DNA of 64,000 nt from Massalongia carnosa (GCA_965645245.1 OZ287067.1:1-64000); one strand, 5' to 3'. Positions 29,428 to 64,000 are shown, counted from the stretch's first letter. The notes: generated from the letters alone by a model not told the origin. A program made the numbers and translations.

Positions 29428-29793
29428 TTAGCGTATGCAAAATGATTTGCAATTTCGCTTATGAAAACACATACCACCAACATGACCCCACCATTCAAAC
29501 TCCAAAACCTTAATTTTCCTAGATATTCCTACTCCAAAATCCTAACATATTTTTATAATTTGGTAGACATCTATAGAAATTATTATGCCTCCAAATAGAC
29601 GGAGTAAAAAGGGACCAGTTAACTAAGTTTTGCCGCCGGCGCCGACTCGGGGGGTCGTCGCCGCCAAGTTCCTGCTCGCCTACGAAGCTCGCCCACCCCT
29701 CTTGGTCCTAACCCTCAAACCCCGCTCCAGGGTGCACGCCGTCCCCATGAGAGCCCTCCTCCTAATCCTCCTAACCCTCCTTCTTCTCCTCCT
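29428..29793 (+). mobile_element. 5' fragment of the two-gene Tc1-like element (TIR + start of the partner ORF)
   Basis: Near-identical to 46208-46305 joined to 51920-~52188; follows TA at 29426-29427; partner ATG at 29585 has an early CAA>TAA stop. Confidence 0.93.
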
Positions 29794-31066: not shown

Positions 31067-33942
31067 CCTGAATCTAGAATGTATTGCGAAATACCTTCTG
31101 AGCCCAGACTAATCTCTATCAAATGTGCATGTCCTCTCTTTGCAGCGCCTTTGACGAGATTTAGAAGATTTTGTTTAATCCTTACGTCAGGGCCTATGAT
31201 CAACCAAGCTAACGAACAGTGGTTCTGTTCTACTACCCATTGTATGACTTTAGTAGTGCGCTTCTTCCAGTCCTCCATTGTCCATGGCATGCTAGATAGA
31301 GTGTCACGCCAACTAGCTTCCATTATTAAATTGGACCAGAGTCCCCACAGCTTCCTAGAACCAGGACTCATTCCATGCTTAGTGTGTTCAAGCCAGAATT
31401 GGTTTGCGTATGGTCGAAAGGAGTAAGGTCTGAGAATTATATCCTGGCGGCAAGCTTCGGTATCACCGGCTACTTCCTCCAATAGACGATGAACTGACTT
31501 GCCAGACTTATCATCTCGTCTCAGTAACTCAAGAGCAATTTAATTCGAGAAATTTCCAAACGATAGGCTATTCTTTATGATCATTGACGTGATACCGCTA
31601 GTGGTGATGCTTTTGCCGGTATTATGCGTTATGTTATTTGCCTATTGAACACGGGGAAATTGAGATATGTGACACAGATAGCACCTGCAATTTCATCGGC
31701 TTTTTTCAGATCGATGTGATATTTGCTCAGCGAATCCTGAACGGCTCTTGAAAGCAAATACTGTTTGACGCTACCATGCGTAAAGTGTACCGTTTGCTGT
31801 TCCTCTTCTATGAAGACGAGATTACCGCAACATGCCACCGCTTTCTTCATGTCGTTGATATATATATTATCATTCCATGCCTCTTGTAGTGGTATGGTCC
31901 CTATGGCTTCCCGAAGTTCTTCGACCGTAAGAGGACGTTTCGCTACACCCAGCGAAATATTTGCCTTCCAATATCAATGTCGTCAGCTTCGGTATATTTG
32001 GAGAGAATTCTTTTAAACGTCTCCGAAGATCGCGTGGAAGATTTCTCAATGCGGCAACTATCAGACTATCCGATTTTTTCTCACGCAACTCTTGGAGTTG
32101 AAATTTGACCCATAAGAACCTTTTGAGGTAAGCCCTACACTGTTATTTAGGACACAAGGATATCATACATTCCCTGAGCTTTCTTTTCAAGACAGTCTCG
32201 AATCGTTATTATCAGGGTTGGAGCATTGATTTGCAGTTCCGGTGTCTCGCCTTCTAGCCACGCCTCGAGTGTGACGCGGATGAATGTACGAATATCGTGA
32301 GCGACTCTGCTTTGATTCTCAACGGTTTCTAAATCGATATGCTGCTGGGTCAGGAATCTTCCTGGTAGCCAACTCAGTACGTTTGGACGACTAGACCAAA
32401 ATAAGTTTATACGCAAATGGGGGGAAAGCAAAAGCCCGTGGAAGATCTCAGCAACCTCCTTGACTTGTGCTTCTTCACATTCGTCCAAGCCATCCAGCAC
32501 TATAAAGTATTGGCGAGTATGGCTCAACATAGCTTCAAGAGCGCTAATGATGCTTGTTTCATCGATATTTTTCTGATTGAATGCGCGGAACGCTTTTGCA
32601 GGCAAATCACACATTAATTGCCTGGCAATACTTCCAATGATTGTCTTTGCTTTTAGAGAATCCGTTTCATCGAAGCGACAGAAAAAAAAGGCAGTAACAT
32701 CTTTCGGCGATACTTTCTCCATTAAATGTGCAGCCACACAAGCGCTTGGACTTCATTAGTAAAACTTCATCGTGAAAGCTAACAAGGGACTGAACCTTGT
32801 GACCGATTTACCCGATCCTACTGATTTTCACATAAGCATTGCTGGGCACTAGGAGTAATTATACACTTACACCTGCCAGTAAACCTAAGTGTTTTCAGAG
32901 TCCCAGATATCCATGCATGAAATTCTGGGTTCTCACATATCCACATTGATGTACTAGGTACGCACTCTTTACGAATCTGCCTGTACGTCTTCTGATAGTC
33001 ATAAGTCGAAAGACCGTTCAAAGCTTCCAATCTCTTTTCTTCAAATTTACGGCGGTCGATCTCCAAACGCAAATGTCTTTCCTCTTCCTTACTTTTGTGA
33101 TGATCGTTCCTGAATTTGTCCACGATTTCCCGATACCTCCTAGCATCCGAACGTTCTTTAGCTTGGAGCTCATTTTCCTGCTTTTGAGCTTGCTTCGATG
33201 CCAGAGATGCTTCCTCTCGAACTTCTTGAGATAATCTTGCAATTTCCCCTTCATACGGTCCGAACTCCGCCTTGAAGGAGACCAGCAGTGCCTTTGCCAA
33301 CTGTGTATATACTGGAAACACGTCAATTCTTGGACTGCGTCAAAGATAGACAAGGGAGTTGCGAAGAAGAACAGAAAGCGTATATACCTGGCTTTCGAAG
33401 AGACAGCGTTACGTGCTTACAAAGCCGTATAATGGCAGCGTAATAGTCATAGAGCGCTTTCTGTAGTCCTATTGAAGGATACAAGGATCTAAACCCATGA
33501 ATTCGAGGGCATTGCCTTCCTACATTCATGGGTAGGATTGACAACTGATCAAAGTAAGACGAAACATTGTTTGCAGCCTGCAAGTGTCAAACCTAATACT
33601 TGAGCCGGGGAGAGGTATTACGAGTAAAGCCAGTTTCACCCCTCCCTACACCAATGCCGCGACGTGAGGATTAGAGCTGATAAATACATCAACTACCTGA
33701 GAGAATTGCTGAATTGATTCAAGGAATGTAATCAGCCTTGGACCCATACATTGACTACGGCGGCTGCTGCATTTTCTATCAATGAGAGACGTGAGATTGA
33801 TAGCAGCTGTAGCATCTGGCAATGCTTGAGAGTGGAGTTGGCTCCTGTCTTCATCAGAAAGGATCGTCTCGTAGTCATGTAATGCTTGCGCAAGATTGAT
33901 TTCAGGCTTCAGCGGCGCTGCGCTAGCGAGCACCAAAGCCAT
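29794..33942 (-). pseudogene. NLR-like NACHT-ankyrin gene, multi-exon, frameshifted and 3' truncated
   Basis: Helical N-terminal domain (33646-33942); NACHT segments (WICENPEFHAW, P-loop split by an intron, FFFCRFDE, FIVLDGLDEC); winged-helix-like CCGNLV...FTHGSVKQYL; ankyrin array. Confidence 0.88.
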
Positions 33943-43735: not shown

Positions 43736-43849
43736 TTCCGTTCTGTGGTGTTCTGATCAAGCGAAAGTCAAATTATCAAGATTCAAGAATAATACAACGG
43801 ATTAATTCATAATGCTGATTTCAATGAAAGATAACAGCAATTCTTACTA
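43736..43849 (+). repeat. Dispersed direct repeat, paralogous to 61874-62003
   Basis: ttccgttctgtggtgttctgatcaagcgaaagtcaaattatcaagattcaaga...ttcttacta is shared, with a short indel. Confidence 0.85.
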
Positions 43850-44973: not shown

Positions 44974-46207
44974 TTAAGACTCCAATGATAAACTCTCCAT
45001 CTGCCACTCATTGATAGCCTCAAGCGAAGACTCTGTATCAGGATGTTGAGGACCCAATTTGTGTTTTTGTAGCTGAAAACATTCCTTTAGCAGTGAGAGA
45101 GCCTCATCATTGCGGCCTTGAGACTTCCACGTGAATGCAAGGTTATTCATGCTAGGCAGCGTGTCTGGATGCTCCGCCCCTAGCACCCTCTTTATCGTCT
45201 CCATCACTTGCACCTGCAGCTCTTCGGCCTCCGTCCATCGTCCTTGATTCCAATACGTCAATGAAAGATTAGCCATGCTAGTCAGCGTGGAAGGATGCTC
45301 CGCCCCTAGCACCCTCTTTCTCGTCGTCATCACTTGCACCTCCAGCTCTTCGGCCTTCGTCCATCGTCCTTGTTCCTTGTATGCCAAGGCTAGCATAGCC
45401 ATACTATTCAATGTCTCTTCATCCTCTGGACCAAGCACTTTTTGCCTGGTTCTTGTTGCTTTTAGGGCCATTGTCGCTGCTTCAGCGTAACTCCCTTTCG
45501 CCCACGCATACCGTGCAGCGCGATATAGTATCAAGGCCCAATCTTGTAATGAGCTTTCGACAGCTGGCTCCTGCGCTACTGCCGACTTTGCGTGAGGAAA
45601 AAGCGCTTGACACTTTGTCCAATTTTCGTAATTTCCCGTCGGAAATACTGTACAGAGATTCTTGATGTATTACTGCTTCCATCTTTCGAGCTGATTGGAT
45701 GCTTCTAGCCACTTTCTGATGGCTAGCTGCACTAGCCCGTGCATCTCAAAGGTGGTTTCATTCATGCTGATGGTGATGAACGAGAAGTTTCTCAAGACAA
45801 GTATGTCGGCTTCAAACTCGTCGACGCTGGAATCGAACACGGTATCCTTATCGCTATCGTCTTCGTGGTCATCATCTTCGTCATTTCCAGCGTTTTCTCC
45901 CGTGTTTTCATTTCCTGCCTCGTTTTGTGTCTTGAGTAAAGCCTCAGGAATTCCCTGTCGATCGAAAAAGCTCATAAGCGACAGCAGATTAGCTGCCGAA
46001 GGCTTGATCTGATGAATATGATCAAACAATATTTGCCAGGTTATAATGATTGAATTTTTAGCCTCCAGGTCCCTGCGAAGATGTCCCGCTTCGTGATTCA
46101 ACAGACTGGTCTTTCTTTATCATTTTTATAGAACTCTTTTATATACTGTCGAACAGAATATCTTGGTACTCTTGGTCGAATTTATGCGGCCGCTTGAACG
46201 ATGGCTA
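44974..46207 (-). pseudogene. NB-ARC-TPR (NLR-like) gene, 3' half; 5' part lost at the Tc1-like insertion
   Basis: AIVQAAA*I, LLSLMSFFDRQGIPE, FEMHGLVQ; TPRs LGAEHPSTLTSMANL; in-frame stops. Confidence 0.88.
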
Positions 46208-46577
46208 TGAGCGTATGCAAAATGATTTGCAATTTCGCTTATGAAAACACATACCACCAACATGACCCCACCATTCAAACTCCAAATCTTAATTTTCCTA
46301 GATATTGTCACGGTACTGCCTCGCTAGCACCCGAATCGAGTCACGGCGCTAAGGCTTGAATGATAAGTGAGGGTTAGGCTCAGCATGGTTAGCGAGATCA
46401 ACGGAAAGATTATATCTTTGCTTTCGCTGTTGAGATTTTCTTTCTTCCTTGTCGAACGTCTTGTAAATATCCGATAGCCTACATATAGCAAAGACTTCGT
46501 ACCACCTGATCTTATCTCATTGAGTCCTTCTCGTCACACTACGTTCGACCTACCCTATCAGCTGGTACGCCTTTGCT

Positions 46578-47756
46578 ATGGCCGAAGCATCGCCCCCGTC
46601 CCCATACATCGTTCCAACTCCTCCCGTTTCCGTGGGTTCTGCGGAAAATTTGTTGTCCGCAGTTCAATCTAATCCCATAACCTGGTATGAGTATATGCAG
46701 CGCCTGGATCTATTCGCCCACGATGCCAGTACGCATCTGGATACCAATGATCGCGATTTAGCAGAGGCGAATCACGCGATCCTAGATTTGAACAACAGAC
46801 TGGCTGGCAGTAACGCGATAGCTGCCGAGCTTCGTGAACAAATACGATCCGCCCCCACCGCAGTCGCACATTCATCTCCGCGTTCAGAGAAACATCCTGA
46901 TCCGCCTATGTACGGCGGAGACACAGCCGAATTACGCACATGGACTACTCAGCTGCGTCTGAAACTCTTGATGAACGCAGATCGATACCCCACCATGCCA
47001 GGAAAATTAGCGTACGCGATAAGTCGTCTCAAGGATACGGCCTTGTATCAGATACGTCCTTATATCAAGGATGACGACACTATCGATCTGCGCGATGTTA
47101 GCGAGCTGATTACCAAGCTGGAGCTGGCCTTCGGTGATCCGGACAGAAAGGCCACCGCACAGCGAGAACTTCGTCGCCTCCAGCAAGCAAACCGAGAATT
47201 CCTTGTATATCTGGCCGAGTATCAGCGGTTGATCCCCGATACTGGATACAACGAAGAGGCGAAACGATCGATCCTGCTAGAAGGCATTAGTAATGAGCTA
47301 AAAAGCGCCATCCTGACGTTTGATCTTCCGACCGACCTAGACGAGGTCATTCAGATTCTCCAGAAGATCGACAACCGCTACCGCGCCACCCAGGCCTCCA
47401 TCCGCAAAGCTGGGACTGTCTTTAGCAACACATCACGATCTAGCTCTGCACCCACTATCGCCGCTGTCAGCAAACCCACACCCGCTCCCGCTCCCACCGT
47501 CACCACCACCACCAAAATCTCCGCACCCCCCTCCTCTGACGCCATGGATCTATCAGTATCTCGTCATCGAGGCCCTCTTACCCCCGCCGAGAAATCACGA
47601 AGAATGAACGAAGGATTGTGCATGTATTGCGGGGGATCTGGACATTTTGCGCAATCCTGCCCGCTATCCTCGTCCAAAACACGCCCGCGATTCCAAGTCT
47701 CTGAAATGGAACAGAAGACTGTTGATTTGGGGGGAAAAGTACAGTCTCCGAACTAA
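46578..47756 (+). CDS. Gypsy-B Gag
   Basis: Intact 392-aa ORF with CMYCGGSGHFAQSC, clearly homologous to Gypsy-A Gag. Confidence 0.92.
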   Translation: MAEASPPSPYIVPTPPVSVGSAENLLSAVQSNPITWYEYMQRLDLFAHDASTHLDTNDRDLAEANHAILDLNNRLAGSNAIAAELREQIRSAPTAVAHSSPRSEKHPDPPMYGGDTAELRTWTTQLRLKLLMNADRYPTMPGKLAYAISRLKDTALYQIRPYIKDDDTIDLRDVSELITKLELAFGDPDRKATAQRELRRLQQANREFLVYLAEYQRLIPDTGYNEEAKRSILLEGISNELKSAILTFDLPTDLDEVIQILQKIDNRYRATQASIRKAGTVFSNTSRSSSAPTIAAVSKPTPAPAPTVTTTTKISAPPSSDAMDLSVSRHRGPLTPAEKSRRMNEGLCMYCGGSGHFAQSCPLSSSKTRPRFQVSEMEQKTVDLGGKVQSPN

Positions 47757-50700
47757 GTCGCGTTCGGAGACCAACACGGAACAAGTGTATTTCAATATCA
47801 GCATTTTCCTTGTCCACCAAACCTTTGCCAGAAGAAGAATTAGATGGCAAACATTTGGTGATATCAATGATTGTATCCATAGGTAATCGTCAAATAAAGA
47901 CCTATGCACTAGTTGACTGTGGAGCATCTGGTTTTGCTTTTATTGACTCTTCGTTCGCGCGCCGTCATTCCCTGCCCCTATCCCCCTTGAAGCAATCTCG
48001 TATCCTCGAATTAGCCGATGGACAACCCATCTCCTCTGGTGAAATCACTCACCTAGCCAAGTTACGTCTTCAAATCGCCACGCATTCCGAGCCCGCCAAC
48101 CTTCTCGTCACCAATTTGGGCCACTACCCCATCGTTCTAGGGATCAAGTGGCTACAGATACACGACACTAGCATACGATGGGCTGGAAACACTCTCTCGT
48201 TCACGTCACCATACTGTCTTCAGCACTGCCTCGAGAATCATGAACCCAACACTGTCGTCGGAATAAGCAACGTTCCAGAACTTAGTGCAGAGAAGGAGCA
48301 CCCCGCCGCAGTCATGAAAGTCACTAGTCCGGAACAACGAACATCCGCTTCAGACCAGCCCGGCCGGTCTGAAGGAAAGGGCGCTAAATTGAAGAGGTCT
48401 AGCGCTCCCTCTTTCGACCAATCAGATCCAGACCCAAGACCCAAGACCCCGCCCGAGACCGAGAAACCTGAGACCGAGAAACCTGAGACCGAGAAACCCG
48501 AGATCAAGAAACCCCTGAATATCTGCATGATAGGAGCCGCCCCTTTTGTCCGTCTTGCACGGAAAAAGGACTGCGAACTATTTACCGTGAACCTTAGAGA
48601 CATTGAACGAGCCCTGACCCCGAAACCGGAAGTTGATCCCGCTACAATATTGCCGCCGGAGTATCACGAATTTCTTGATGTATTTTCCAAGAAGACTGCC
48701 CGAACGCCGTAGCTATGACCACACTATTCCGCTGATGGAAGGGAAAGAACCCACGTAGGGACCCTTGTATGGCATGAGCCGAGATGAATTGCTGGTACTG
48801 CAGAAGTATCTTACCGAGAATTTGGAGACAGGATTTATTCGTTCAAGTTCTTCCCCCGCCGCGTCCCCAGTACTGTTTGTCAAAAAGCCGGGCGGAGGCC
48901 TGCGCTTTTGCGTTGATTATAGAGCATTGAACGCTAAGACTATCAAAAACAGATATCCCCTGCCCCTGATCAGAGAAACTCTAGACCGCCTGAGTAAAGC
49001 ATGCATTTTTACTAAGCTAGATATAGTCGCCGCATTCAATCGCCTTCGTATGGCCTATGGAGAGGAGTGGAAAACCGCCTTTCGGACAAGATACGGTTTG
49101 TTTGAATATCTCGTTATGCCCTTCGGTCTCGCCAATGCACCCAGTTCGTTTCAGCATTATATCAATGATGTTTTACGAGAAATATCTCGATATAGTCTGT
49201 ACCGCTTATATCGACGATATATTAATCTACAGTAGTTCCATGAAAGAACATAAGGGTCATGTCACCAAAGTTTTGAAGGCTCTGCAAAAAGCGGGGTTAC
49301 AACTGGATATTTCGAAATGCGAATTCCATGTAACGGAGACAATATATCTTGGATTTATTGTTTCGGATAAAGGCATAAAAATGGACCCTAAGAAAATAGA
49401 GACCATAAAGAACTGGAATACCCCGGAGAACCTCAAGGATGTGCAGGCGTTTATAGGATTTGCGAATTTCTACAGACGGTTTGTGAAATCCTTTTCAAAG
49501 ATCGCTGCCCCCCCCACCGCTATGTCCAAAAAGATTACGCCATTCGTGTGGACCTAAGAGTGTGCAAAGGCCTTTAAAATCTTAAAGGATGTGTTCTCCA
49601 GTGACACCATACTAATTAATTTCGACCCCGATAAGGAAAGCATAGTGGAAACAGATTCTTCCGACTATGTAAGCGCAGGAGTACTATCGCAGTATGAGGT
49701 AGAGGGTGTACTTAAACCAGTAGCCTTCTTTTCCAAAAGACTATCGCCAGCGGAGTGTAATTATGAAATCTATGATAAAGAACTTCTGGCCATTATCAGA
49801 GCTTTTGAAGAATGGAGACCCGAATTGCAAGGAGCAGCACATCCAGTAAAGGTAATAACAGACCATAAGAATCTCGAGTACTTCACTACCACCAAGCAAC
49901 TCAGCAGGAGCCAGGCAAGATGGGCCGAATTTTTATCACGATTCGACTTTAAGATAGGTTACAGACCAGGGAAACAAGGAGAAAAACCAGATTCTTTGAC
50001 TAGAAGATCAGGAGATCTTCCTAAAGAGGGGGACCTGAGACTGGAACATCAGAATCAGGTGGTACTAAAACCCCATAATTTCGAACTTCTGGCTAATAAT
50101 CTGCTTCGCCTGACCGATATTACCAACGATGACGCTGATACGGATAATGATCTAGAAACCGAACATGAAGACTCCGAGAAATCTATCGAGGAATTGATGA
50201 ATCAAGGATACGAGCTGGACCCATTCCCCAATAGCATTTTGACTCTTCTTCGAAACGGTGCTAGCCATAGCAAGGATATAACTCTGGCCGAATGCGAAGA
50301 CCGAGATGGGAGACTATATTACCGCGAACGCCTATACGTACCCGATTTCCATGATTTGAGACTCAGACTATGCAAGGAACACCACGATAGCCCTGTCGCC
50401 GGACATCCCGGTAGAGCCAAAACTTTCGGTTTGCTATCTCGAACTTATTATTGGCCCCAGTACCATCATTTCGTAGCACGATACGTACAGAACTGTCACG
50501 TATGTTCTCGTAGCAAAGCTTCCCGTCATCCAAAGTACGGTGTGTTAAGACCTCTGCCCATTCCTCAGCAACGCTGGAGAGATATTTCCATGGACTTTGT
50601 AAGCGGCATTCCCGAATCCGGTAGTGACAAGAAAGACGCAATCCTGGTTTAGTTGATCGACTCACCAAGATGAAGCATTACATACCGTGCAAAGAGACTA

Positions 50701-51668
50701 CCAACGCTCACGAGTTAGCCAAGTTGTATCTGCAGAATGTATGGAAATTACACGGCCTGCCCGAATCAATAGTCTCGGATCGCGGAGGGCAGTTCATCTC
50801 GGAATTCTGGAAGGCTCTATGTGAAAGACTAGGAATTAAGTCGGCCCTATCCACATCCTTTCACCCGGAGACAGATGGCCAGACGGAACGATTCAATGCA
50901 GTCATGGAATCATATTTAAGAGGCTACGTAAATTACATGCAAGATGACTGGGAAGAATGGCTACCAATGGCAGAGTTCATTAGCAACAATGTTGATTCCG
51001 AGACCACTACGACAAGTCCCTTTTTAGCGAATTATGGCTTCCACCCCCGTCTAGATTTCGAACCTCTCTCTCGCACCAACAACTCCCCAGAGCTCACCAA
51101 TGCTGATGAGTTTGCTACCAAGATGGAAGAGATTAATGCCCACCTTCAAAATGAAATGCGATTGGCTCAAGCTCGGTATGAATCCACTGCTAATTATCAT
51201 AGAACCCCCGCACCGTCGTTTCGCGTAGGAGACGAAGTCTGGTTGAATGCTAAGAACATCAAAACCAAGCGACCTTCTAAAAAGCTGAATTGGAAGAAGT
51301 TAGGAAGATTTACCATCAAGCGAGTAGTAAGTAAGTATGCTTACGAACTTGATCTCCCTACCTCTATGAAAATACACCCTGTATTCCACGTTTCTCTGCT
51401 AGAGCCGGTTGCTCAGAACCCACACGATGGCCAAATTCCTCCACCTGCCCCGCCGGTTGAAGTTGAAGGTGAAGAAGAGTGGGAGGTGGAGAGTATTCTT
51501 GATTCGAGATTTTTCCGAAGACGACTGCAATATCTTGTTAAGTGGGCCGGCCATGACGCACCTAGTTGGAATGAAGAAAAGGACATCACTCACTGCGAAG
51601 ATTTATTACGAGAATATCACCAACTGAGGCCTACCAAACCTAGAGGTTCTCGCGGAGCTCGAACCTAA
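47732..51668 (+). pseudogene. Gypsy-B Pol (PR-RT-RH-INT-chromodomain), disrupted
   Basis: Five ORF fragments homologous to Gypsy-A Pol, separated by stops and frameshifts. Confidence 0.93.
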
Positions 51669-51978
51669 AGAGGAGACCTGATGTCACGGTACTGCCTCGC
51701 TAGCACCCGAATCGAGTCACGGCACTAAGGCTTGAATGATAAGCGAGGGCTAGGCTCAGCATGGTTAGCGAGATCAACGGAAAGATTATATCTTTGCTTT
51801 CGCTGTTGAGATTTTCTTTCTTCCTTGTCGAACGTCTTGTAAATATCCGATAGCCTACATATAGCAAAGACTTCGTACCACCTGATCTTATCTCATTGAG
51901 TCCTTCTCGTCACAGATATTCCCTACACCAAAATCCTAACATATTTTTATAATTTGGTAGACATCTATAGAAATTATT

Positions 51979-53868
51979 ATGCCTCCAAATAGACGGAGTA
52001 AAAAGGGACCAGTTAACCAAGTTTTGCCGCCGGCGCCGACTCGGGGGGGTCGTCGCCGCCAAGTTCCTGCTCGCCTACGAAGCTCGCCCACCCCTCTTGG
52101 TCCTAACCCTCAAGCCCCGCTCCAGGGTGCACGCCGTCCCCATGAGAGCCCTCCTCCTAATCCTCCTAACCCTCCTTCTTCTCCTCCTGTCGGCGCCCGT
52201 CTTCCAGCCCCTCCATTGTTTCCTCCCTTAGATGCTCGACCTCGACCCCCCCCGGTTCCACGCCGCCCGAGTGCGCGTGACGACCATACACCGGTATTCA
52301 CCATGAAAACGCCCAAGATTCCCGGCAATACTCGCGAGGGGAAGGCGGAGCGTGTGTTATGGCGTGCACATTTGGAGAGAAGCAAGGAGGCCGCCGCGCG
52401 AGCAAGAGCGAGACGAGATAGGGAGGATGAAGAATGGGAAGCGGAGGTCAATCAATTCGGGGAACCGGAAGCCCGACGACGACGACTGGAAGAAATAGAG
52501 GTTAATAAAGAATTAGACAAATTGACTATATCGAGCATTGAGGAAGATGAGGCCGAAGATCTAGTATCCGATCCTATGTTGACCGTTCATGCTAGACTTC
52601 GTGTCAATGGTAGAGTTATATGGACCTCATCGCTAGGTTCTAAAAAACGAAGCGTTTTCAGTATATGGGATTTCGAACAGACATTGGAGACTGAGATTGA
52701 GAAAAGGAGCGGGCATACTAAAGGATGGACGACGACCTCCATCGTCGTCATTATTAAGGCCATTCATAGTCGGGCCAGGAATGTCCATCAAACCATTGAT
52801 AATTATACTGAGACTGAATGGGAAAAGGTTCTAATTGTCATTGATGATGAATCTCGTAAATGGAAGCCAGATATCACTATTAAGATCGAAATTTCGATGG
52901 AAGAACCGAAGCAATCAAATCCCCCTGACATATTACTAGATGCAACTGAATCATCTACTATTATTACTACACCTACCGGCCGAAGGACTAGAACTCATCA
53001 ATTATTAGAACGTCAACGAGATCAAGGTGAGATCCTTATTAATGCAGGTGAATTTGATAGACAATTGGTGAATCGATGGGTTTGTCACGCTGCTCGATGT
53101 ACGAATCAAAATAACTTCTGTTTCGTTGATGAAGATGGGCTTCATTATGATCTTTCTCATACATTGCAAAGAGATTGGGCTAAGGCTCTCGCTCGTGGCG
53201 ACATCAGTGCTTCCCTAGATAATCCACTACCAACATTGTATAGGTTCATACTACGACAGGGCCGGTGGGTCTCAATTCTAGGAAGACGAGAATACAGAAA
53301 GGACGGGAGGATTCCAGAAAAGATCGCGATGAGACGAAAAGCTTCATGGGTGAAATGATGCAATTCACAAAGCTATCGATGGAAATGCGTATGCAGGAAT
53401 CGATGATGGACCAAATAGAAAGAATGGGTGAAAGAATGAGTAATGTTCGTCGCCCCCCTCCCCCTTTCTCAACCATCATCTTCTTCGGTCCCCGAACCCA
53501 TCATCCCCCCACCCCCTGCGGCACCAAGGCCTCGCTCGAAACCGTTGACTAGGTCAAGCCCCATATGCAACCCCGAGGATGAGGAGTTTGCTATAGAGGA
53601 TTTCCTCAATTGGAAAGGGGAGGCATTGCAGAGTCAAAGAGCCAAGGATAGATGGAATGGGGTTAAGGAGATTGTTCAAAATGAGATGTGGTCTTTGGAG
53701 GATTTGAGAGATATGTCAGAAACGAGCTCACATATATATAACGGGCTATTCAACTGGGCATACCTGATGGATGGGCACGAGCATTCAGAACTGATCTCCG
53801 TACATTCAAACCTCAATGGCGACATAGAGTTGATGAGGGGGATGTGCCATAGGAAGAGGTGGGAATAA
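51979..53868 (+). pseudogene. Unknown protein carried by the Tc1-like element (Pro-rich N-terminus, Cys/His motif), frameshifted
   Basis: ORFs 51979-53358, 53265-53552 and 53443-53868 overlap in series; motif RWVCHAARCTNQNNFCF...HYDL...W. Confidence 0.7.
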
Positions 53869-53977
53869 TTGGCTATATAGGTCGGGTTGGAAGGGTTGGA
53901 AGGATTATGCGTTTATGGATATTCGGGGTTAATTGATATCTTTTTTCATGCTTATTGTCACGATTCAACCACATCCG

Positions 53978-54194
53978 ATCGGTCCTCCTCTTTCTACACC
54001 ATCGGTCCTCCTCTTTCTACACCATCGGTCCTCCTCTTTCTACACCATCGGTCCTCCTCTTTCTACACCATCGGTCCTCCTCTTTCTACACCATCGGTCC
54101 TCCTCTTTCTACACCATCGGTCCTCCTCTTTCTACACCATCGGTCCTCCTCTTTCTACACCATCGGTCCTCCTCTTTCTACACCATCGGTCCTC
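53978..54194 (+). repeat. 23-bp minisatellite, 9 perfect copies plus a partial
   Basis: (atcggtcctcctctttctacacc)9 atcggtcctc. Confidence 0.97.
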
Positions 54195-54341
54195 ACCGTG
54201 GGGCGACCGTCAAACATATAGATTTGCTCCTATCTCTTCGCATCAAAACAATGCTAGCTGTCACCTCAAGAAAAATCTATCTCGGAGCAGAATAACAATA
54301 TCCCATTTAATAGGCCCGGCCTGTTAAATAAAATCGAGGAA

Positions 54342-54476
54342 AACACAGAGTCACAAAACACATAGTCATCAATCACACGTTGTACAAAGCACACAGTCAC
54401 AAAGCACACAGTCACAAACATACAGTCACAAACACACAGTCACAAAACACACAGTCACAAAAAACACAGTCACAAA
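54342..54476 (+). repeat. Imperfect 14-16-bp tandem repeat (acacagtcacaaa)
   Basis: About 8 copies with variable A-runs. Confidence 0.88.
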
Positions 54477-54690
54477 TTAATAACACGTCCCTGTGAAGGG
54501 GGTTCTGCGGGGGCTCGTTAAGACAGATCTGCACCCCGTTAATATCGGAGTACATATTTTTAGAGGTTCAAGTCCTTTCTAGCAGTCATCAGCTGAAAAC
54601 AATGTATTTTGACACGGGCATGGTGTGGATTTGACACGGGTAGACCTCGATGGATCACAAAACGAATGAAAAGAGTTCAGCGGAACTTCG

Positions 54691-57600
54691 TTAATATTGT
54701 TCTCGAAGACCTCGTTTCCGCAACTTTTCTCTTTGTTTCAGCATGTTCACCGCTCGAAGGCCAGCTGCTGGGGTCTCGCTCTCCCTTGCTTCGAGAATAC
54801 TATCTTCCCACTTTGGGGCTTCCCCGAACATTGCTTCGAACGGTGTCATGTTGATGACGCTGTGCAAGCTATTGTTGTAAGCAAACTCAGCCATTGGTAA
54901 CCAATATAACCAGTCATCTTGCTGATAGTTCACATAACACCTCAGGTACTGTTCTAAGGTTTGGTTTTGTCTCTCCGTCTGCCCATCGGTTTGAGGATGG
55001 AAGGCTGTGCTATAATTGAGCCGTACTCGGAGGTAATAACAGAAGTGCGACCAGAATTTGGAGGTGAAAAGACTTCCCCGATCTGTTACAATCGACAATG
55101 GCATACCGAATTTGGTAAATATTTCTTCGACAAGGACATCGCTCATGTTCTCAGCTTCCCAGTCCTTTCGTGCGGGTATGTAGCGAGAGAATTTCGTATA
55201 CCTGTCTATCGTTACCAGGATAGAGTCATAAACTTGCCCCCGCCGAATACTTGGCGGAAGGTCGGTTATAAAGTCCATTGTCCAATTTTGTCTAGGTCCT
55301 TGGGGGATTGGCAACGACACCAATTCTCCGTAAGGCTTATGTCTTGGAGCCTTGACCTGATGACAACGAGTACAGGTTTCGACATAACTTTTGATGTCTC
55401 TTCGCATTTTAGGCCAGTAGTATTTTCTTTGAATTAATTCCACTGTCCGCCTAACTCCAAAGTGGCCCGCATTGGGGTCGTCATGATTCTGTCGCAGTAG
55501 CGCTTCTCTCAATATGCCTGAAGGTACGTACCATTTATTGTCTCTGCATAAAAGGCCGTCTTCTATATGCCAAAGGTTTTCTTTGTCTTTATTATCTCCC
55601 CGCGGTTTCCCTTCCAATGCCAGGGTATCTACCTGCGAGTGACTTTGGACACCTTTGTTGACTTCCAGCGTTCCATACAAACTCTCCCTCTTGTGTTGCT
55701 CCCACTGTGCCGACGAGGCGGCAAGGGGCCGTCTCTGCTGCGCGAGTTGATCAGACTCTTGCAGTGCCAGAAGGACGGTGCGTAACTCGAGCGGTGGAGC
55801 AGTAAAGGCTGAGTCCTTCTCTGAAACTTCCTTTGATTGTTCTAGAGAAATTCGAGACTCCTTCTCGGATGTCTCCACGAGTTGGAACTCTGTAGGCTTC
55901 GAATCGGCCTTTCCCTCGTCCAGTTTAGGTGAAGACTTTCTCTTCTCCTTAACTCTTCTTACTGCTCCAAGAACCTCGAGAGTTTCATTCTCAGTCCCTT
56001 CAGTAGCCAGCAAGGAACGCGCGCTTGGACCATTTTCGGTCTCATCAACGGAAGAGTCCCCTGATTCATAATCAGTTCCGTTAACAGATTCAGGTTCTAT
56101 GAATCCATGCACAATTGTGCTATCAACAGTGGGCTCCCATTCCATAACATTTCCCCTAGGAGCAGTTACAGGGATGCCGGTTATCGACGCAACCACCCAC
56201 TTCTTCGTCTCGAACTTTTCTTCGAGTTTCTCTGTCCCCTGTCGAATACTCAGAGGCTCCCCTGCTTCACTGGAAACTACTGCACCGACTTGATGAGACA
56301 AGTTGGGTTCATTTCCAGCATAGTCTGGACGCCTTGAAGGCCCGTCCGCAGGATTATAGCGCCCTGGTCGGTATTCAATTACCAAGTCGAGACTAGAGAG
56401 TCTCTCCCACCATCGCGCTTCTCTTCGCGATAAATTCATGGTGGTGAGAAACGTACGAAGGTTGCAGTGATCGGTGATCACACGAATGGGATGCATTGCC
56501 CCTTCAAGATAGTGTCGCCATTGCTTGCATGCTTCGACGATCGCTAACATCTCAGTTTCGCCCACTCCATAATTGAGTTCAGCTGGGGCCATTTTCCTTG
56601 ACCAAAAGGCGATAGGATGCCAGCGTCCGGATTCTTCGACTAACTGTGATATAATTGCAGAAATCGCGACTCCTGAGGCGTCCGTTTCTAATTGGATTTT
56701 CCTCTTCGGGTCGAAGTGCAATAGCATGGGAGCAGTCGTGAAAACAAGTTTTAATTTTTCGAAGGATTCCTTGGCTTCCTTTGTGAACGTAAACTGGCCG
56801 TCGAATTTACCCCTTTTTCCTCCTTTGAGAAGGGTAGTAAGGGCAGTTACTATCCGCGAAAACCCGTCTATAAATCGTCTATAGAAGTTCGCAAAACCCA
56901 AGAAGACTTGTACGTCTCTATGATTTTTGGGTTCTGGCCAGTTTGTTATCGTCGTTATGCGAGAGGGGTCCATTCTTATGCCCGTTGGAGTCAAAATAAA
57001 TCCTAAGTATTCAATCTCGGACTTATCGAAAAGGCATTTGGAGAGTTTCGCATGCAGATTATATTTCCGAAGCTTCTCGAGTATCATTCGAACGTGATTT
57101 GCATGCTCTTCGATTTTTTTAGAAAACACCAAAATATCGTCCAGATACACTACTACGAATACGTCCAGGTATTCCCTTAGAGCTTCGTAAATATACGCCT
57201 GAAACGTGGCAGGTGCATTCGCTAACCCAAAAGGCATTACTAGATATTCGTAGTGACCGTACCTGCATCTGAACGCGGTCTTCCATTCGTCGCCGGCTCT
57301 AATGCGTATAGAGTTGAAGGCGTCCCGAATGTCGAATTTGGTAAAGATCAGCGCTCCTATCAACACTTCAACTAATCCTTGAATTAATGGGAGTGGATAA
57401 CGGTTTTTGATCGTTACTGCATTAAGACCTCGATAATCGACGCATAGTCGCAGGCCACCATCTTTTTTCTTCGCGAATAATATTGGTGCTCCAGCCGAGG
57501 ACTTGCTTGGAACTATGTAACCTTTAGCTAATTGCTCGTCCAAATACTCACGGAGTGCATTTAATTCTGTCAGTGATAAATTATAAATAGGCCCGAAGGG

Positions 57601-58395
57601 AATGTTTCCTTCGGTCTCAATCGCATGTTCATGAGGTCCATGTTCCGGTAGTTTATGTGCTTTCTCTTTGGAGAACACATCACTATAGCCGGCATATTTG
57701 GAAGGGATTTCAGTTGGTACTTCAGTCACAGAACCAATTACTGTTCCCGTTTGGTCGAGATCTTGAACATTTAGAAGAAATGCTTGTATTCCCTCTTCTA
57801 CGCACAGCCTTCGTATCCCCTGGGAGTCCACTACCGCTATATCTGGATGACTATTGGAAGTATTACTTCGAGGGACTTGTGTCCGCTCGACTACAGGCTC
57901 ACCAGTCTCAAGGTCATAGACCTCATGCAGACGCGCCTGACCGTCCTCGTTTTCCGATGGACGAACATGGAACAATTTGCGCTCATGCCAGCGGATAACC
58001 GGGTCAACCTGATCTAGCCAGGGCATTCCCAGTATCATATCAACGCCAAACATGTCAGCACCCACGAACGTTTGATCCGCTCGTACCTCTACACCCTTAT
58101 CATCAACGACTCCAACTTGTAGAGTGTGATTATGATAAGTTTGTAGAGGCGTTCCATCCAGTGTCTTCAATTCCGACGGCGGTGGGGACTCGACAGGGAT
58201 TCGTAAGGCAGCCTCCTTCACCTTTATTTGGGAAAGGAAATTCCAAGTAGAACCGCAGTCGATCATAGCGCGTATTTGCAGAAGTACCTTGTCAATGTAT
58301 AATGTCACTACAGTGAATAGATGTTTTACCGTTTCACCTCTTTTTCTGCGAGCCAAAACAATTGAGGCAACATCGATTGGCTCTAGGCTTTTCCC
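54691..58395 (-). CDS. Gypsy-C Pol (PR-RT-RH-INT), open but truncated at the integrase C-terminus
   Basis: MIDCGST, YLDDILV, ETDASG, GHFG...CTRC, VTDRGSLF; no chromodomain and no 3' LTR. Confidence 0.9.
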   Translation of the reverse strand, partial: GKSLEPIDVASIVLARRKRGETVKHLFTVVTLYIDKVLLQIRAMIDCGSTWNFLSQIKVKEAALRIPVESPPPSELKTLDGTPLQTYHNHTLQVGVVDDKGVEVRADQTFVGADMFGVDMILGMPWLDQVDPVIRWHERKLFHVRPSENEDGQARLHEVYDLETGEPVVERTQVPRSNTSNSHPDIAVVDSQGIRRLCVEEGIQAFLLNVQDLDQTGTVIGSVTEVPTEIPSKYAGYSDVFSKEKAHKLPEHGPHEHAIETEGNIPFGPIYNLSLTELNALREYLDEQLAKGYIVPSKSSAGAPILFAKKKDGGLRLCVDYRGLNAVTIKNRYPLPLIQGLVEVLIGALIFTKFDIRDAFNSIRIRAGDEWKTAFRCRYGHYEYLVMPFGLANAPATFQAYIYEALREYLDVFVVVYLDDILVFSKKIEEHANHVRMILEKLRKYNLHAKLSKCLFDKSEIEYLGFILTPTGIRMDPSRITTITNWPEPKNHRDVQVFLGFANFYRRFIDGFSRIVTALTTLLKGGKRGKFDGQFTFTKEAKESFEKLKLVFTTAPMLLHFDPKRKIQLETDASGVAISAIISQLVEESGRWHPIAFWSRKMAPAELNYGVGETEMLAIVEACKQWRHYLEGAMHPIRVITDHCNLRTFLTTMNLSRREARWWERLSSLDLVIEYRPGRYNPADGPSRRPDYAGNEPNLSHQVGAVVSSEAGEPLSIRQGTEKLEEKFETKKWVVASITGIPVTAPRGNVMEWEPTVDSTIVHGFIEPESVNGTDYESGDSSVDETENGPSARSLLATEGTENETLEVLGAVRRVKEKRKSSPKLDEGKADSKPTEFQLVETSEKESRISLEQSKEVSEKDSAFTAPPLELRTVLLALQESDQLAQQRRPLAASSAQWEQHKRESLYGTLEVNKGVQSHSQVDTLALEGKPRGDNKDKENLWHIEDGLLCRDNKWYVPSGILREALLRQNHDDPNAGHFGVRRTVELIQRKYYWPKMRRDIKSYVETCTRCHQVKAPRHKPYGELVSLPIPQGPRQNWTMDFITDLPPSIRRGQVYDSILVTIDRYTKFSRYIPARKDWEAENMSDVLVEEIFTKFGMPLSIVTDRGSLFTSKFWSHFCYYLRVRLNYSTAFHPQTDGQTERQNQTLEQYLRCYVNYQQDDWLYWLPMAEFAYNNSLHSVINMTPFEAMFGEAPKWEDSILEARESETPAAGLRAVNMLKQREKLRKRGLREQY

Positions 58396-59498
58396 GACCT
58401 TCGAGATGGTGCTCTACACTCGGAGCGTTTGTGACCTTTCTTGTTACAATTCCAGCATGTAATTCCAAAGTTATCGTAAGTTTCTTCACGAGGTCTCTTG
58501 GAATTAGGCCGAGTAACAACAGCCTGTGTCGTGTTAGCGTTCTTGGGCTCATCGGGTTTAGAAGAGGTGGTTCTCATATAGGTAGAGGATCGCCGGGCGT
58601 ACGACGGCCGTGAGGATCTCTCTCCATTTTCACAACGAGATTGTGTTCTAGTAGAGGTGGTGCGAAGAAAGTCGGGTTTCGGCTCCACCCGCTCGGCCAC
58701 TCGTGCGGCTTCGATCAACTCTACACGATTCTTGCCTTGTAAGTTGGCGCGAATAATAGCTCGTTGCAAGTAGTCATGTAGGGAATGTAAGAGGTTACTA
58801 TGCTTTTGTGACTCCGAAGGCCTTTTCGGTAGTTGATCTTCGAGAGTCTCCAAGTAAGAAACCAATTCCGAGACGGATTGCCCCGGACGTTGTTTAAGCT
58901 TCTTTAATTGACCGCCGAAGTCTAATAGTCGGAGGTGTTTGGGTTTGAGTTTCTCCTGTAAAAAGTGAGTCATATGTTCCCACGTATAGGAGGGTTGGTC
59001 TGGGGTTGGTCTTTCGCGATGCTAGTCATTCGCCGGGGTGCCGTCAATAAAGTTCTTAGCATAGAGAATCTTTGCCCTGTCAGTCGCATAAGTGATGGGT
59101 TTAGTCTCGAACGTCCGTTGACATTCTCTAATGAAGGTCTCATAGTCCTTCTGATTAGTACCCGTGTAAAGCTTAGGGTCAGCAACTTTAAAGGACTTTT
59201 CGAGACTAAGAGGGTCCACTTCCTTTGCTCTGATAGGTATTGTCATAGTAGGAGGTTCTGTTGGGAAATCAGCGTCTCGTTCGGCCCTGGCCTTTTCGAT
59301 GTTAGTTGCCAATTGGGCTCGGGCGCGCTGGTCGTTGATATCATCCAACTCCTGTTGCATCTCTTCCATAGTTGGTAGTCGCTGGTCATTACCAGGCCCC
59401 TCGCCAGAGGTACGAGTTGTAGAACAATCGTCAGTTCCTTCAGGTTGGGTAATGGGGTTACCTCTAGCAGATGCAGCAGGACGATCTCGTGGTGCCAT
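58383..59498 (-). pseudogene. Gypsy-C Gag with one premature TAG at 59022-59024
   Basis: ORFs 59022-59498 and 58383-58973 are in the same frame; LKQRPGQSV; CWNCNKKGHKRSEC. Confidence 0.88.
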
Positions 59499-59538
59499 AT
59501 CGTAGTTGGATCGATCTTCGTTTTAAGACTGATCAATA

Positions 59539-59902
59539 TGTGAGGCGAAGTACGAACAGTGTGACTATATGGCTCTACAGTAGTGGTAGGACAATAGAAT
59601 AGGAGTCGCTATGGAACAGCAGTAGGTGGAGTGTAATCAATAGATTGATCAGTGGCCCTCCGAAAGAGGTGGGCGAAGGGCTGTTTATCCTATAGCCCCA
59701 CCTTGATTAGGCCACGTTCGTCAAACTAATTGCTATTACATGATTGGGCCGGTTGAGACCATCGCATGGGTGTCTTCCCACGCACCCCCTGCAGAAGTGT
59801 GCGACCGCTTCCTGTCTTATAGAAAGCTGTCCTGACAGTTTTCCATGTACTATAAAACTAGATAGACTCGCTCGCATGGGCCGGCCTTCGGCCGGTACCA
59901 CA
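59539..59902 (-). mobile_element. Gypsy-C 5' LTR (~364 bp)
   Basis: TGTG...CACA ends with an adjacent self-priming-type PBS; no partner LTR to confirm the outer end. Confidence 0.65.
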
Positions 59903-60651
59903 TCAGAATAAGAATCATCATCATCATAATTATCATCAACCACATCCACCCAAGGCCAATCAAAGGAAAATACGGCATCTGCCGGCGCACTAACCGCTTC
60001 CGTTACTCAACCCTTTTAGCAATCATAGGGGCAATCAACGGAGGTCTGAAAGGACTAAAAGGGACGCATCGGAACGACCTTCTAAAGCAAACACAAATAG
60101 ATGAAAGGGACAAAGGGCAGAAAGAATGTTTGACCAAACTGTTCACTTATTGATAAAGACACAAACAGCTGGATCGGGCAAAGCGATTATCTATATAGAC
60201 TCCTAGAGAGAGCACCTTTTGCTTGCTTCCTTTCTGCATCTTTGATATTTTCTAGTGCATAGCTTCCTAGTAGATAGACAATTCCATATCCTTGTAGAAC
60301 CGTCACACTTATAATTTAATGGAAACATTTGCATACATCCACACTCGTAATTCTAAAAGCCGAATGGGATCATACTATGCAAAAACACCTGTTTTTGGTG
60401 AGGTTTAACTAATTAGTATACATGCAAATGAGGTCTTTTTTCTCGATTCTGTAATAATGTAATCAATATTTATAAACATTATAAATGATCAATAGATCTT
60501 CTCAATATGCTCAGTTCGATTATGTCATGGAGTAGATTCAGGAGTGATTAATTTAATCAAAAAATTCGGATTCAGAGGTTCTAGCCTAGATGTAGGTCAG
60601 ATGTAAAATCTAGCCTAAAATCTGGTCCAGATCTGGTCCAGATTGAATAAT

Positions 60652-61695
60652 TCAATTAAAATCTATTTGCACCTCACCCCCATATAGCTCCTTTTCTAAT
60701 TCAATAATGTCGGCCTCGAATCTATTCCCCCCACCTCTACCACTATGACGAAAGTGCTCTTTAACGAAACGGTCACAATGGCTCCTGTCGATGGCATATC
60801 GAATTAAATCGCCGAAGGTGCCCTCAAATTCAGAGCGAATTGAGGTATAATGAGTTCTAAACCAAGCCTTTAGTACACTAAAACTCAACTCGATTGGATT
60901 GAAATCCGGTGAATAAGGGGGCAGATATCGTACTTCGCAACCGTATCCACGAATGGCCTCCTCAATGCGTGGGTTGCAATGGATAGCGGCATTATCCATG
61001 ACTATAACGCTTCGGGGGCCTGGATAAGGGGTGCAATATGGAGGTAATTCGTCGGTTATCTATTGAAAGAAACCATCTGCAATAAACCACCCCTCCTGAA
61101 TGCTCGTACATGGCAGATAGTCATCAACAGTATATGTAGAAAGAACGGTCTAATTATGACCCCTCCTAATGTCTCCCTGGTATCGAGCCGGTTACCCAAT
61201 TGGTGCGTATGCTCTCATCCTCCAACCGGTAATCTCATAGAATGCTGTTTCATCAACGCAAACCAACCGCTCTGCAGTCACATTAAGCATGCTAGCATAC
61301 CATTTTTCCCTCAATTCGTCGTTCCTACGCCTATGTCTTTGACTTTTCTTTTGACTCCATCGGCGTTTCTTTATTTCCCTAGAAACGGTTGATTGATGCA
61401 CGAATATACCCCACTCCTCCCAAAGAAACCAGACCATCTCCTTTTGTTGGGCCCGTTGCTGACGATTTAGATATTCAATCAAGGAGTCACCGGCGGCTTT
61501 AGTAATTTTGCATGCGCGACCTAGATGACGTCTTCGAGGAGTGGATATGCTACCATACATGAATAAATTCTCTTGGAAATTATAGATAGTTCGGACACTG
61601 CAATGAACCTCTTTGGCTATAGTATCCGGTCGCCAATGAAGGAATAAATATCGAATAATTCGCGATCGCATTGATAGAGGAAGGGATTCGACCAT
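60652..61695 (-). pseudogene. Tc1/IS630-family DD34E transposase with in-frame stops
   Basis: HTH-like IAKEVHCSVRTIY, VCVDET, MDNAAIH...YLPPYSPDFNPIE (34 residues between D and E); both ORF pieces are in one frame. Confidence 0.92.
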
Positions 61696-62003
61696 ATTGA
61701 CGATTAATATATATATGAGTCTATCAAATTATAATAATATGTTAGGATTTTGGTGTGGGGAATATCTAGGAAAATTAAGATTTTGGAGTATGAATTGTGG
61801 GGTCATGCTGGTGGTATGTGTTTTCATAAGCGAAATTGCAAATCATTTTGCATACGCTAATACGCTAATACTTTCCGTTCTGTGGTGTTCTGATCAAGCG
61901 AAAGTCAAATTATCAAGATTCAAGATGTTTGTAGATTCTAGAATACTACAACGGATTAATTCATAATTCTGATTTCAATTAATAGTAACAGCGATTCTTA
62001 CTA

Positions 62004-64000
62004 ATCGTCGCCTCGCTTACCTCCGGGATCCGACTTGAAAAAATGTCGACCGCATTTTAGTCGGGGAAAGCGGTTGCTTCCCGGAATGCGGTTGCATCCC
62101 CCCAAATTCAAATTTCTTCACCTTTTTTATTATTGACCAACAACCACATTGATTAAAAATCAGCCGATACCGTACATAGCTTGAAAATTATTTCTCCGAC
62201 CCAACTGATCATCAATTCAAATTCTTTCCTCTCGAATCAATCCCCCAAACCAATCTCCGCTTTCGTTTCATGGATAACGACGCCTCCCTTGTCTCCACTC
62301 TCAACCCCATGGAAAGATTGGAAAAGGCGAAGGAATTTCTGACAAATCATCCCAAAGAAAATAAAACGACTGCAGCTAGAATATACAATATCAACGTCAA
62401 AACTTTGACGTCTTCCATTCGTCGACCAGAAGGGAGGAAAAATGGAGGACAAAATCAGATACTGAGGGAGCATGAGGCAAGGTTAATTACTGGCTTTATT
62501 AAGTCCTTACTGATGCATGGAATTCTTCCTACACATCAGATGGTTTTCAAGGCTATTGTAAGTCTGAAAAGGCCCATAACCCCCTCGAGTTAGGCCCGTC
62601 AAGAAGATGGTTTCGGAGCTGGTGGAAATATAACAAACTTCATAAAATAAATACAAAACCACTAATAATTATTCGTTATGAAGCTGCCCAAGAATCAGAT
62701 GTGATAGAATTGTTTGAAAGGTATAGAGAGGTGTTGAAAGAGTTGAAAATTCGAAAAAGTCGGAACATTTTGAATATTGATGAAGCTGGTTTTCGGGTTG
62801 GATGCATGAGGGGTCAGGAAATAATTGTTCCTGAGGAAATCAAACAATTCTACGCCGTCAGCCCGGAAAATCGCAGATCTCCGACAGTTATTGAGACTAT
62901 CAATGCTGCCGGCGACTATCCCCCCCTCCAATGATCATCGTACAGGGTCATGACATCATGGCCACATGGTTATTAGAAGGTGTGCCCGAGGGCACGTATG
63001 TCGTGCCCTCTAACAGTGGTTTTACATCTGATAAGATAGCAATTGAATATTTGAAGCATCTTATCAAACATACAAATGCAGGAACTGATGCGGAATGGCA
63101 ATTATTGCTGATAGATAATAATGGCAATTATACAACCCCTGAATTTTCACTTTTGGCCAATGAGAATCGCATTCGACCCTTTCCCTTTATACCGCATTTA
63201 ACTCATTGCAGGCAACCATTAGATGTGGGCGTATTTCAGCCTTATAACCATTGGCATTGCAAAGCTATTGAGGAAGTCGTTGCGTCGTCATTTGTCGAGT
63301 ATTCTCTGTCTCAATTTATACAGGACTTGACTAAAATCAGAAATCATACATTCAAGACTTCTACGATTCGGCATGCATTTGAAAAGTCGGGAATGTGGCC
63401 GATTGATCCAAAGGCATGCATTCGTCAGCTGAAAAATTTCAATCCTAATGATCCCAATGATTCATTAAACAGTCTGAATAATGAGCCCTCATTACCTCTA
63501 CCCCTACCTCGTCAAATCCAACCGACAAAAGTAGCTGACATTGAGTATGGTTTGAGTCAATGGGGACCGAAAATCAGAAACTCCATGCAATAGAGTGATC
63601 CCGCTCGGGCTGAGGAATGGGACTCATTTGTAGACAATACAAATGAAGTTGTTTCGAATGCGATTATCGATGGCACGGAGCTTAAAATGCATCGAGAATC
63701 GAGAAGAAGTCAGTTAAATAACAGACGAATGTCTCGTAAACGTCTGAGACCAGAAACCGGAAGACTGGGAATCACAGCGGAAGATGCAAAGCAGGCTTTA
63801 GCCATCAGACTACAACAGGATTAAGAGGCTGAGGAGAAACGAGCGAATAATAGCTTCATGAAGCTATGGCGAAAAGAAAGAGACGAAATGCATGTCAAGG
63901 GATTGGCTGCTCGAAAAGCAGAAAGCGATCGAGTTAAACAGCTGAAAGAAATGCAGAAAATGCACGGTCCCATTCCAATTAAGATGTATGAGAAGATTCC
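62004..64000 (+). mobile_element. pogo/Fot1-like transposon with a disrupted transposase (from 62270), running off the window
   Basis: LNIDEAGFRVG, LLIDNNGNY, PHLTHCRQPLDVGVFQPY; starts after TA at 62002-62003. Confidence 0.88.

Follow-up and report, generated by a model that had tools for sequence, protein, structure and literature searches.

A Tc1/IS630-like transposon lineage of fungi with a conserved second gene convergent to its DD34E transposase

The window, a stretch of 64 kb at the start of contig C1 of Massalongia carnosa (GCA_965645245.1 OZ287067.1:1-64000), contains a Tc1/IS630-like transposon whose two long terminal inverted repeats (TIRs) each lead into an inward-facing gene. The gene at the right end encodes a DD34E transposase, and the gene at the left end encodes a protein of ~627 residues that we refer to as the partner. 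Related partners lie convergent to DD34E transposases in five transposon families of this genome (A, to which the window copy belongs, B, C, D and the type found at loci L096 and L097) and at all seven metagenome loci where a partner was confirmed. Selection has very probably retained the second gene, which has been passed on together with the transposase in families of dissimilar TIRs, and the lineage as a whole is a two-gene one. These observations support the existence among fungi of a DD34E lineage that has its own conserved accessory gene, laid out in the manner of the maize element MuDR.

The original prediction described such a two-gene element at positions 46208–61860, and its coordinates and Tc1-type architecture hold: TIRs, TA flanks and convergent genes are all evident once two nested Ty3/gypsy insertions are removed, leaving a net length of 3,682 bp. 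A TA target-site duplication is present on the left (46206–46207) and on the right (61861–61862). The left TIR is divided by the first insertion into an outer segment of 98 bp (46208–46305, + strand) and an inner segment that runs into the partner start codon (51920–51976, + strand); the right TIR (61705–61860, − strand) runs into that of the transposase. The inverted repeat as a whole pairs 46206–46306 and 51914–51976 with 61705–61862. Its arms are identical at 129 of the first 137 and at 140 of the first 150 aligned positions, so that the repeats are long, as had been claimed, with a length of about 150 bp and not ~140 bp. The transposase gene (60652–61695, − strand, 347 codons) has its ATG at 61695, 165 bp from the right end, and the partner gene (51979–53852, + strand) begins at 51979, which is 157 bp from the left end when the long terminal repeat (LTR) retrotransposon is taken out; both distances agree with those predicted. 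The spacer between the convergent stop codons is also in two parts, 53853–53955 and an AT-rich 60313–60651, the first of which is joined to position 60313 onward in uninterrupted copies.

Both genes of the window copy are dead. The transposase frame contains in-frame stops at codons 168, 182 and 212. When the partner was compared with five other copies, it proved to be short by 1, 8 and 1 bases at about positions 53258, 53465 and 53739 relative to four of them, and the fifth, on contig C16, is a duplicate that carries the same three gaps. Sequencing error is unlikely to be the source of these frameshifts because the duplicate has them too. The predicted ORF (open reading frame) of ~630 codons is thus right in length, at 627 codons when read in the frame of the other copies, but is not open in the window. 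The duplicate is part of a segment of ~16 kb (45963–62404), both retroelements included, that recurs on C16 (L041, L052) at 99.3–99.8% identity and 99.6% over the whole region, with further insertions in its transposase.

A second, truncated copy lies at 29426–29793 (+ strand), where a TA and the left TIR are followed by the first ~70 partner codons. The prediction had placed an independent copy at 29428 and noted its TIR-to-ORF junction; the junction is indeed the same and the flank is different, but the gene is not whole, since the copy ends after ~370 bp. This fragment is twinned at C16:1936691-1937058.

The genome searched comprises 52 Mb in 25 contigs. Matches to the family-A queries, which are fragments and not whole copies, number at least 41 for the TIR, at least 29 for the partner and at least 28 for the transposase side. 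Two copies are uninterrupted (L033, of 3,700 bp including both TAs, and L035), and a third (L037) is uninterrupted except for insertions within its TIRs. The TIRs of L033 are identical at 146 of 151 positions, and a TA flanks the window copy on either side, as it does five of the six two-ended copies inspected. In contigs from two sequencing runs (X1 and X3) the flanks of L033 are joined with the whole element skipped and one TA kept, and the L033 stretch is covered in 30 of 30 bins in each of the four runs compared, from six listed, with no RNA run on the list. The second gene therefore travels with the element, as proposed: uninterrupted full-length copies carry the partner, and empty sites lose the whole unit. 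These empty sites, together with the constant spacing of the uninterrupted copies, rule out that the second ORF owes its presence to chance adjacency or to a nested insertion. With linkage scored as a convergent match of the other gene no more than 12 kb away, a partner accompanies 24 of the 28 family-A transposase matches listed, and a transposase accompanies 20 of the 29 partner matches listed.

The transposase itself is of the predicted class. A sister family-A copy matches DDE_3 (PF13358, E = 1.5e-27), and the DD34E spacing is 34 in all six segments showing the pattern among the eight that were checked. The N-terminus gives a weak HTH_32 match (E = 8e-4, under the curated cut-off), and PF13565 or PF13592 is present in many transposase relatives.

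Decay is widespread in family A, with no fully open partner among the loci fetched. Repeat-induced point mutation (RIP) is unsupported as its cause in this genome (TpA/ApT of 0.43–0.78 in five copies); run X5 (organism C) differs from L033 at 65 C>T and 56 G>A places, a RIP-like pattern that is absent from the other three runs and from the M. carnosa genome. Copies L036 (C15:1919211-1921576) and L040 (C8:59396-61762) have in common an internal deletion that removes the 3′ ends of both genes and leaves the partner frame running into transposase antisense sequence; since a flank is also common to both, the pair probably arose by duplication and not by transposition. At C19:1272780-1272918 (L060), TIR ends of 78 and 61 bp are directly joined in a tiny palindromic remnant. 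Many family-A copies are located near contig ends.

The pairing extends well beyond family A. Among 20 distant DD34E transposase loci of the same genome, 14 have a convergent match to the partner profile (a hidden Markov model, HMM) and four more have a partner remnant; among 20 loci picked instead by their partner, 15 have a convergent transposase and one showed nothing. Family B elements are 3.67 kb long with TIRs of ~215 bp and those of family C are 3.6 kb long with TIRs of ~212 bp, whereas the family-D members L095 and L109 measure 3.5 kb and hold a whole partner. The catalytic regions of families B, C and D are 39–40% identical to that of family A, and their TIRs are unlike those of family A. 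Long partner frames survive outside family A, including an intact one of 690 aa at L082 and an open one of 745 codons at L111. In families B and C (L079, L082, L086) and in family D, the transposase has an apparent intron right after the first catalytic aspartate, and none is seen in family A.

A scan of metagenomes returned 320 pattern matches, seven of which were confirmed as partner. Six of these loci have a convergent transposase at 45–69% identity, and the seventh shows the final ~30 codons of a transposase, beyond which another insertion begins, so that all seven are linked to a convergent transposase. Because L069–L071 are near-identical, the seven loci amount to three or four lineages. 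Two additional transposase–partner pairs are joined only by equal contig sizes (3704; 4016 and 6629). Viral contigs gave 68 pattern matches, none of which was confirmed. At L067, where the transposase is 69% identical, 14 terminal bases (positions 69–82) are the same as in family A and the remaining TIR is different. Partner relatives number ~400 at E ≤ 0.001 among 50%-identity representatives, and the named relatives of the transposon proteins are from lichen-forming ascomycetes.

Between families the partner is under purifying selection. Families B and C are ~70% identical in DNA, and over 549 codons of the partner pN is 0.274 and pS 0.640, giving a dN/dS of 0.24; the value for the C-terminal domain is 0.055, and the two transposase exons give 0.054 and 0.118. 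L067 and L069 give 0.27–0.35. Synonymous divergence is saturated for family A against L067 and L069 and for two of the B-versus-C domains, and in those comparisons it can therefore be stated only that pN is lower than pS. The two genes also diverge together: identities of the transposase core and of the partner C-terminus are correlated over eight pairs (Spearman rho 0.936, 8 of 40,320 permutations), but because the pairs lack independence, the correlation shows joint inheritance and not physical co-evolution. For two of the eight pairs, equal contig sizes are the only link. We also note that pS between B and C (L082 versus L086/L087) is 0.40 for transposase exon 2, compared with 0.73 for exon 1 and 0.64 for the partner, and that recombination between families may be responsible.

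This pattern of selection largely refutes the view that the partner came from the host, as a gene or gene fragment captured by transduplication and carried as a neutral passenger. Capture is the published reading of a Tc1/mariner element of similar size with two ORFs in Pyrenophora (PMC3538342), and a few unlinked partner fragments do exist in the M. carnosa genome. A passenger would not be expected to show dN/dS values of 0.24 and 0.055, however, nor to keep its orientation and domain order across transposases that are only ~40% identical while diverging in step with them. Two protein searches of the genome found no cellular source gene, and the 152 homologue sequences show no Pfam family. 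We regard capture as very improbable.

Besides the non-independence of the co-divergence pairs, several observations weigh against a strictly two-gene lineage. Nine of the 29 family-A partner matches, mostly short ones, have no convergent transposase within 12 kb, and one of them (C14:1883779-1885671) is full length. Two of the 20 loci picked by transposase (L076 and L091) have no partner that we could see, and four of those picked by partner (L094, L100, L101 and L105) are partner fragments with no transposase nearby. Among the ~400 homologue clusters, genomic context is available for just a handful. Finally, comparisons among family-A copies reveal no constraint (dN/dS 0.6–2.1, with few changes), as is expected after insertion. 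The original prediction would have been undermined by homologues that are mostly unlinked to transposases or by intact copies without the ORF; instead, the homologues of known context are linked and the full-length copies have the partner.

The positions of the genes relative to the TIRs suggest how they are expressed. The start codons of both genes are no more than ~25 bases from the inner TIR end in families A, B and C. At L067 and L069 the same splice-donor-like site occurs in each TIR, and each ATG is closely preceded by branch and acceptor motifs, an arrangement that reads as a shared leader intron. From this layout it is likely that each TIR provides a promoter and 5′ leader to its gene and that the two genes are expressed together. 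The family-A TIR is less accommodating, as it contains no intron donor usable by an internal promoter; an intron in that TIR was considered and dropped, the only donor-like site being 6 bases from the end.

At their other ends the genes nearly touch in several families, with 15 and 51 bp between the stop codons in B and C and a few bases in L067, and the 3′ ends of the transcripts would therefore overlap. This proximity could be taken to mean that the second unit works mainly through antisense RNA, or that it restrains transposition as a negative regulator, with the protein dampening the element. We find this idea quite improbable, given the 444 bp between the convergent stops of family A (L033) and a protein-level constraint over three folded domains that exceeds what an RNA role would need.

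The domains of the partner give some indication of its function. Its predicted order is a Pro/Arg-rich N-terminus, a beta-grasp, PB1-like domain, a Cys3His helical domain, a coiled coil, a Pro-rich linker and a C-terminal domain resembling SAM or helix–hairpin–helix (HhH) folds. The motif W-x-C-x4-C-x-N-x4-5-C...H...W and a C-terminal block are kept in an alignment of 51 homologues, in which the Cys, His and Trp residues are invariant or nearly so. A model of residues ~170–627 (mean predicted local distance difference test score, pLDDT, 85.8) contains the beta-grasp, the Cys3His helical domain, the coiled coil, a Pro-rich linker that is disordered and, last, a domain of five helices; in the family-C model (pLDDT 76.5) the coiled coil is absent. 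The beta-grasp domain has the NBR1 PB1 domain as its best fold match (Z 6.9, root-mean-square deviation (rmsd) 3.6, 86 residues aligned). The five-helix C-terminal domain of the family-C model matches the tankyrase SAM domain (Z 6.0, rmsd 2.5, 59 aligned), and SAM domains are frequent among its top 50 matches; the Atlas label of SAM for this domain (0.80–0.82) is useful as a lead only. Whole-model searches gave no clear structural counterpart for the Cys3His domain, which was never searched alone.

Sequence searches were less informative. The window partner, the 51 aligned homologues and 101 further sequences belong to no Pfam family (E ≤ 0.1, with scattered single weak matches), no Pfam SAM match occurs among the homologue sequences scanned, and a search of the PDB with the partner profile returned low-complexity matches only. 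A likeness to superantigens was rejected, as the weak Foldseek matches arise from the widely shared beta-grasp fold.

Polymerisation is common among SAM and PB1 domains, Cys3His sets bind zinc, and Tc1-type DD34E transposases are not known to need an element-encoded cofactor to excise and integrate. In the mechanism that we propose, the symmetrical TIRs would drive both genes, the transposase would perform cut-and-paste as in any Tc1 element and the partner would be a nuclear protein acting in trans to further the spread of its own element. The partner would oligomerise through its SAM-like and PB1-like domains, plus the coiled coil where present, and could contact element DNA or chromatin through the Cys3His domain, which is probably zinc-binding. 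Once oligomerised, it may hold the TIR promoters open against host silencing, much as VANC does for VANDAL elements. Action in trans is suggested by family D, where a derivative of 2.6 kb retains only the two ends of the partner; because this derivative is dispersed at several sites, the partner appears to be dispensable in cis.

We tentatively favour this account, a self-assembling counter-silencing or chromatin factor acting on the element, over a role in transposition itself because Tc1 transposases are not known to need a cofactor and because the partner resembles an oligomerising scaffold with a metal-binding domain. The main competing role would be that of a transposition cofactor, similar to maize MURB or the Myb-like protein of Harbinger, which binds the transposase or the TIRs and aids integration, target choice or nuclear import. 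Linkage, selection and co-divergence fit a cofactor equally well, tight co-divergence would suit a direct protein partnership and the layout is that of MuDR, in which MURB appears essential for insertion (PMC10401008). The transposase found here is nevertheless of ordinary length and domain content and keeps a plain TA target, and we judge a cofactor to be possible but rather unlikely.

Some of the structural evidence also cuts against a counter-silencing polymer. DNA binding by the Cys3His domain is an assumption. All of the partner fold matches are middling, with Z below 8, and Foldseek found no partner match at E ≤ 0.001 in the PDB or BFVD. The tankyrase SAM match is level with that to the Sans SAM domain, but the RAD51 N-terminal domain and NusA domains tie with it as well, so that the C-terminal domain could bind nucleic acid instead of polymerising.

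The PB1 and SAM folds are also typical of signalling scaffolds, which raises the possibility that the partner is cargo directed at the host cell, with a part in signalling, in incompatibility or cell death, or in drive, and that the element owes its persistence to that effect. Purifying selection is compatible with such a role, and several copies adjoin ankyrin, TPR or NACHT-type genes. On the other hand, most copies are broken and unselected among themselves, as expected of a gene that is useful only while the element moves, and no intact solitary partner was present among the loci inspected. Host-directed cargo is unlikely, and a counter-silencing factor remains our preferred reading.

The two insertions in the window copy are not part of the DNA transposon. 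The first, inside the left TIR, is a Ty3/gypsy LTR retrotransposon (46306–51914, + strand) bounded by a 5-bp GATAT duplication (46301–46305 and 51915–51919); its LTRs of 233 bp are 98.7% identical, and it encodes gag, protease, RNase H, integrase and a chromodomain. The second (53956–60307, − strand) is of Ty3/gypsy type and is bounded by a 5-bp CTTAT duplication (53951–53955 and 60308–60312), with a gag zinc knuckle, protease, reverse transcriptase, RNase H and integrase. No matching LTR pair was found in it; its ends read TGTCAC...TCACA, and ~ten tandem copies of a 23-bp unit occupy its left end.

Other features of the window include a 619-codon frame (29680–31539, − strand) with ~12 ankyrin repeats of 35 residues, which extends into the end of the truncated transposon at 29793; an ankyrin array resembling it adjoins a family-C copy in L113. 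To the left of the element is a TPR-repeat frame (44974–45669, − strand), and to its right is a fragment of a pogo/Fot1-type DDE_1 transposase (62895–63593, + strand). Related direct repeats (82%) are located at 43736–43849 and 61873–62003, and the left flank of the window element is also found beside a copy on C14 (L046).

Tc1/mariner elements are textbook one-gene transposons, and a second gene under selection points to an unrecognised role in the movement of fungal transposons or in their survival of silencing. Several hundred fungal 'hypothetical proteins' are explained as transposon genes, and the results suggest that, in at least one case, a reported capture of a host gene may really concern a gene native to the element. 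It is possible, though doubtful, that an old and widespread branch of fungal Tc1/IS630 elements independently evolved both the MuDR layout and a polymer-forming counter-silencing protein of a new family, with PB1-like, zinc and SAM-like domains. If so, we know of no earlier description, in the literature searched, of an anti-silencing factor encoded by a fungal transposon.

The two genes of MuDR are convergent, as they are here. The likeness extends to the ends, since MuDR has two genes within TIRs of 150–250 bp that hold the promoters of mudrA and mudrB (PMC10401008). MuDR differs in having a Mutator-like element (MULE) transposase and target duplications of 8–11 bp (PMC6446971), compared with DD34E and TA in the present element, which is laid out like MuDR but is no MULE. 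With the IS630-Tc1-mariner (ITm) elements of DD34E type it has in common the TA duplication, TIRs, a transposase of ~350 aa, DDE_3 and the DD34E spacing. It departs from their usual single-gene form (PMC13469147) in its length of 3.5–3.7 kb, TIRs of 150–225 bp and a selected second gene of 630–720 codons; the element thus has the TA, TIRs and DD34E of an ITm element without the single-ORF structure.

That Tc1/mariner elements normally carry one gene, a premise of the original prediction, holds with Tec, TBE and Dici as exceptions. The ciliate Tec and TBE elements are also DD34E ITm elements with extra ORFs, and TBE encodes a zinc-finger protein and has ORFs under purifying selection; they differ in having three ORFs, in being confined to ciliates and in their other extra proteins, such as the tyrosine recombinase of Tec (PMC7325037). 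Dici1 and Dici2 of Diutina catenulata are fungal DD34E ITm elements of about 4 kb with TA duplications and extra coding sequences (CDSs), these being a 145-aa protein and a transposase relic (PMC13469147). They have three CDSs with the transposase in the center and TIRs of 8 or 33 bp (PMC13469147), in contrast to two genes and TIRs of ~150 bp here.

We found no description of the two-gene family in the literature, in a search that left Repbase, Dfam and 19 of the 31 supplementary files of PMC3538342 outside its scope, and the term 'second ORF' does not occur in the accessible part of a fungal survey (PMC5751038). The original prediction had allowed that the architecture might already be catalogued, which may be so in part. 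The closest precedent, compared by description only, is the 3.4-kb Tc1/Mariner 'Osmo-CC' element of Pyrenophora tritici-repentis, also fungal and of comparable size, whose TIRs enclose two coding regions (Manning et al. 2013, PMC3538342). It has 46 members, 31 of them with both regions full length, and transcripts were mapped to it; the second region was interpreted as capture of a host domain (PMC3538342). No Osmo_CC match (PF08946) is listed for the 51 and 101 homologue sequences or for five partner frames, and such a coiled-coil match may be compositional. For function, the model is VANC, an element-encoded anti-silencing protein of the Arabidopsis VANDAL elements (PMC6446971). VANDALs differ from the lineage described here in belonging to the MULE superfamily, in being plant elements and in having short TIRs or none (PMC6446971).

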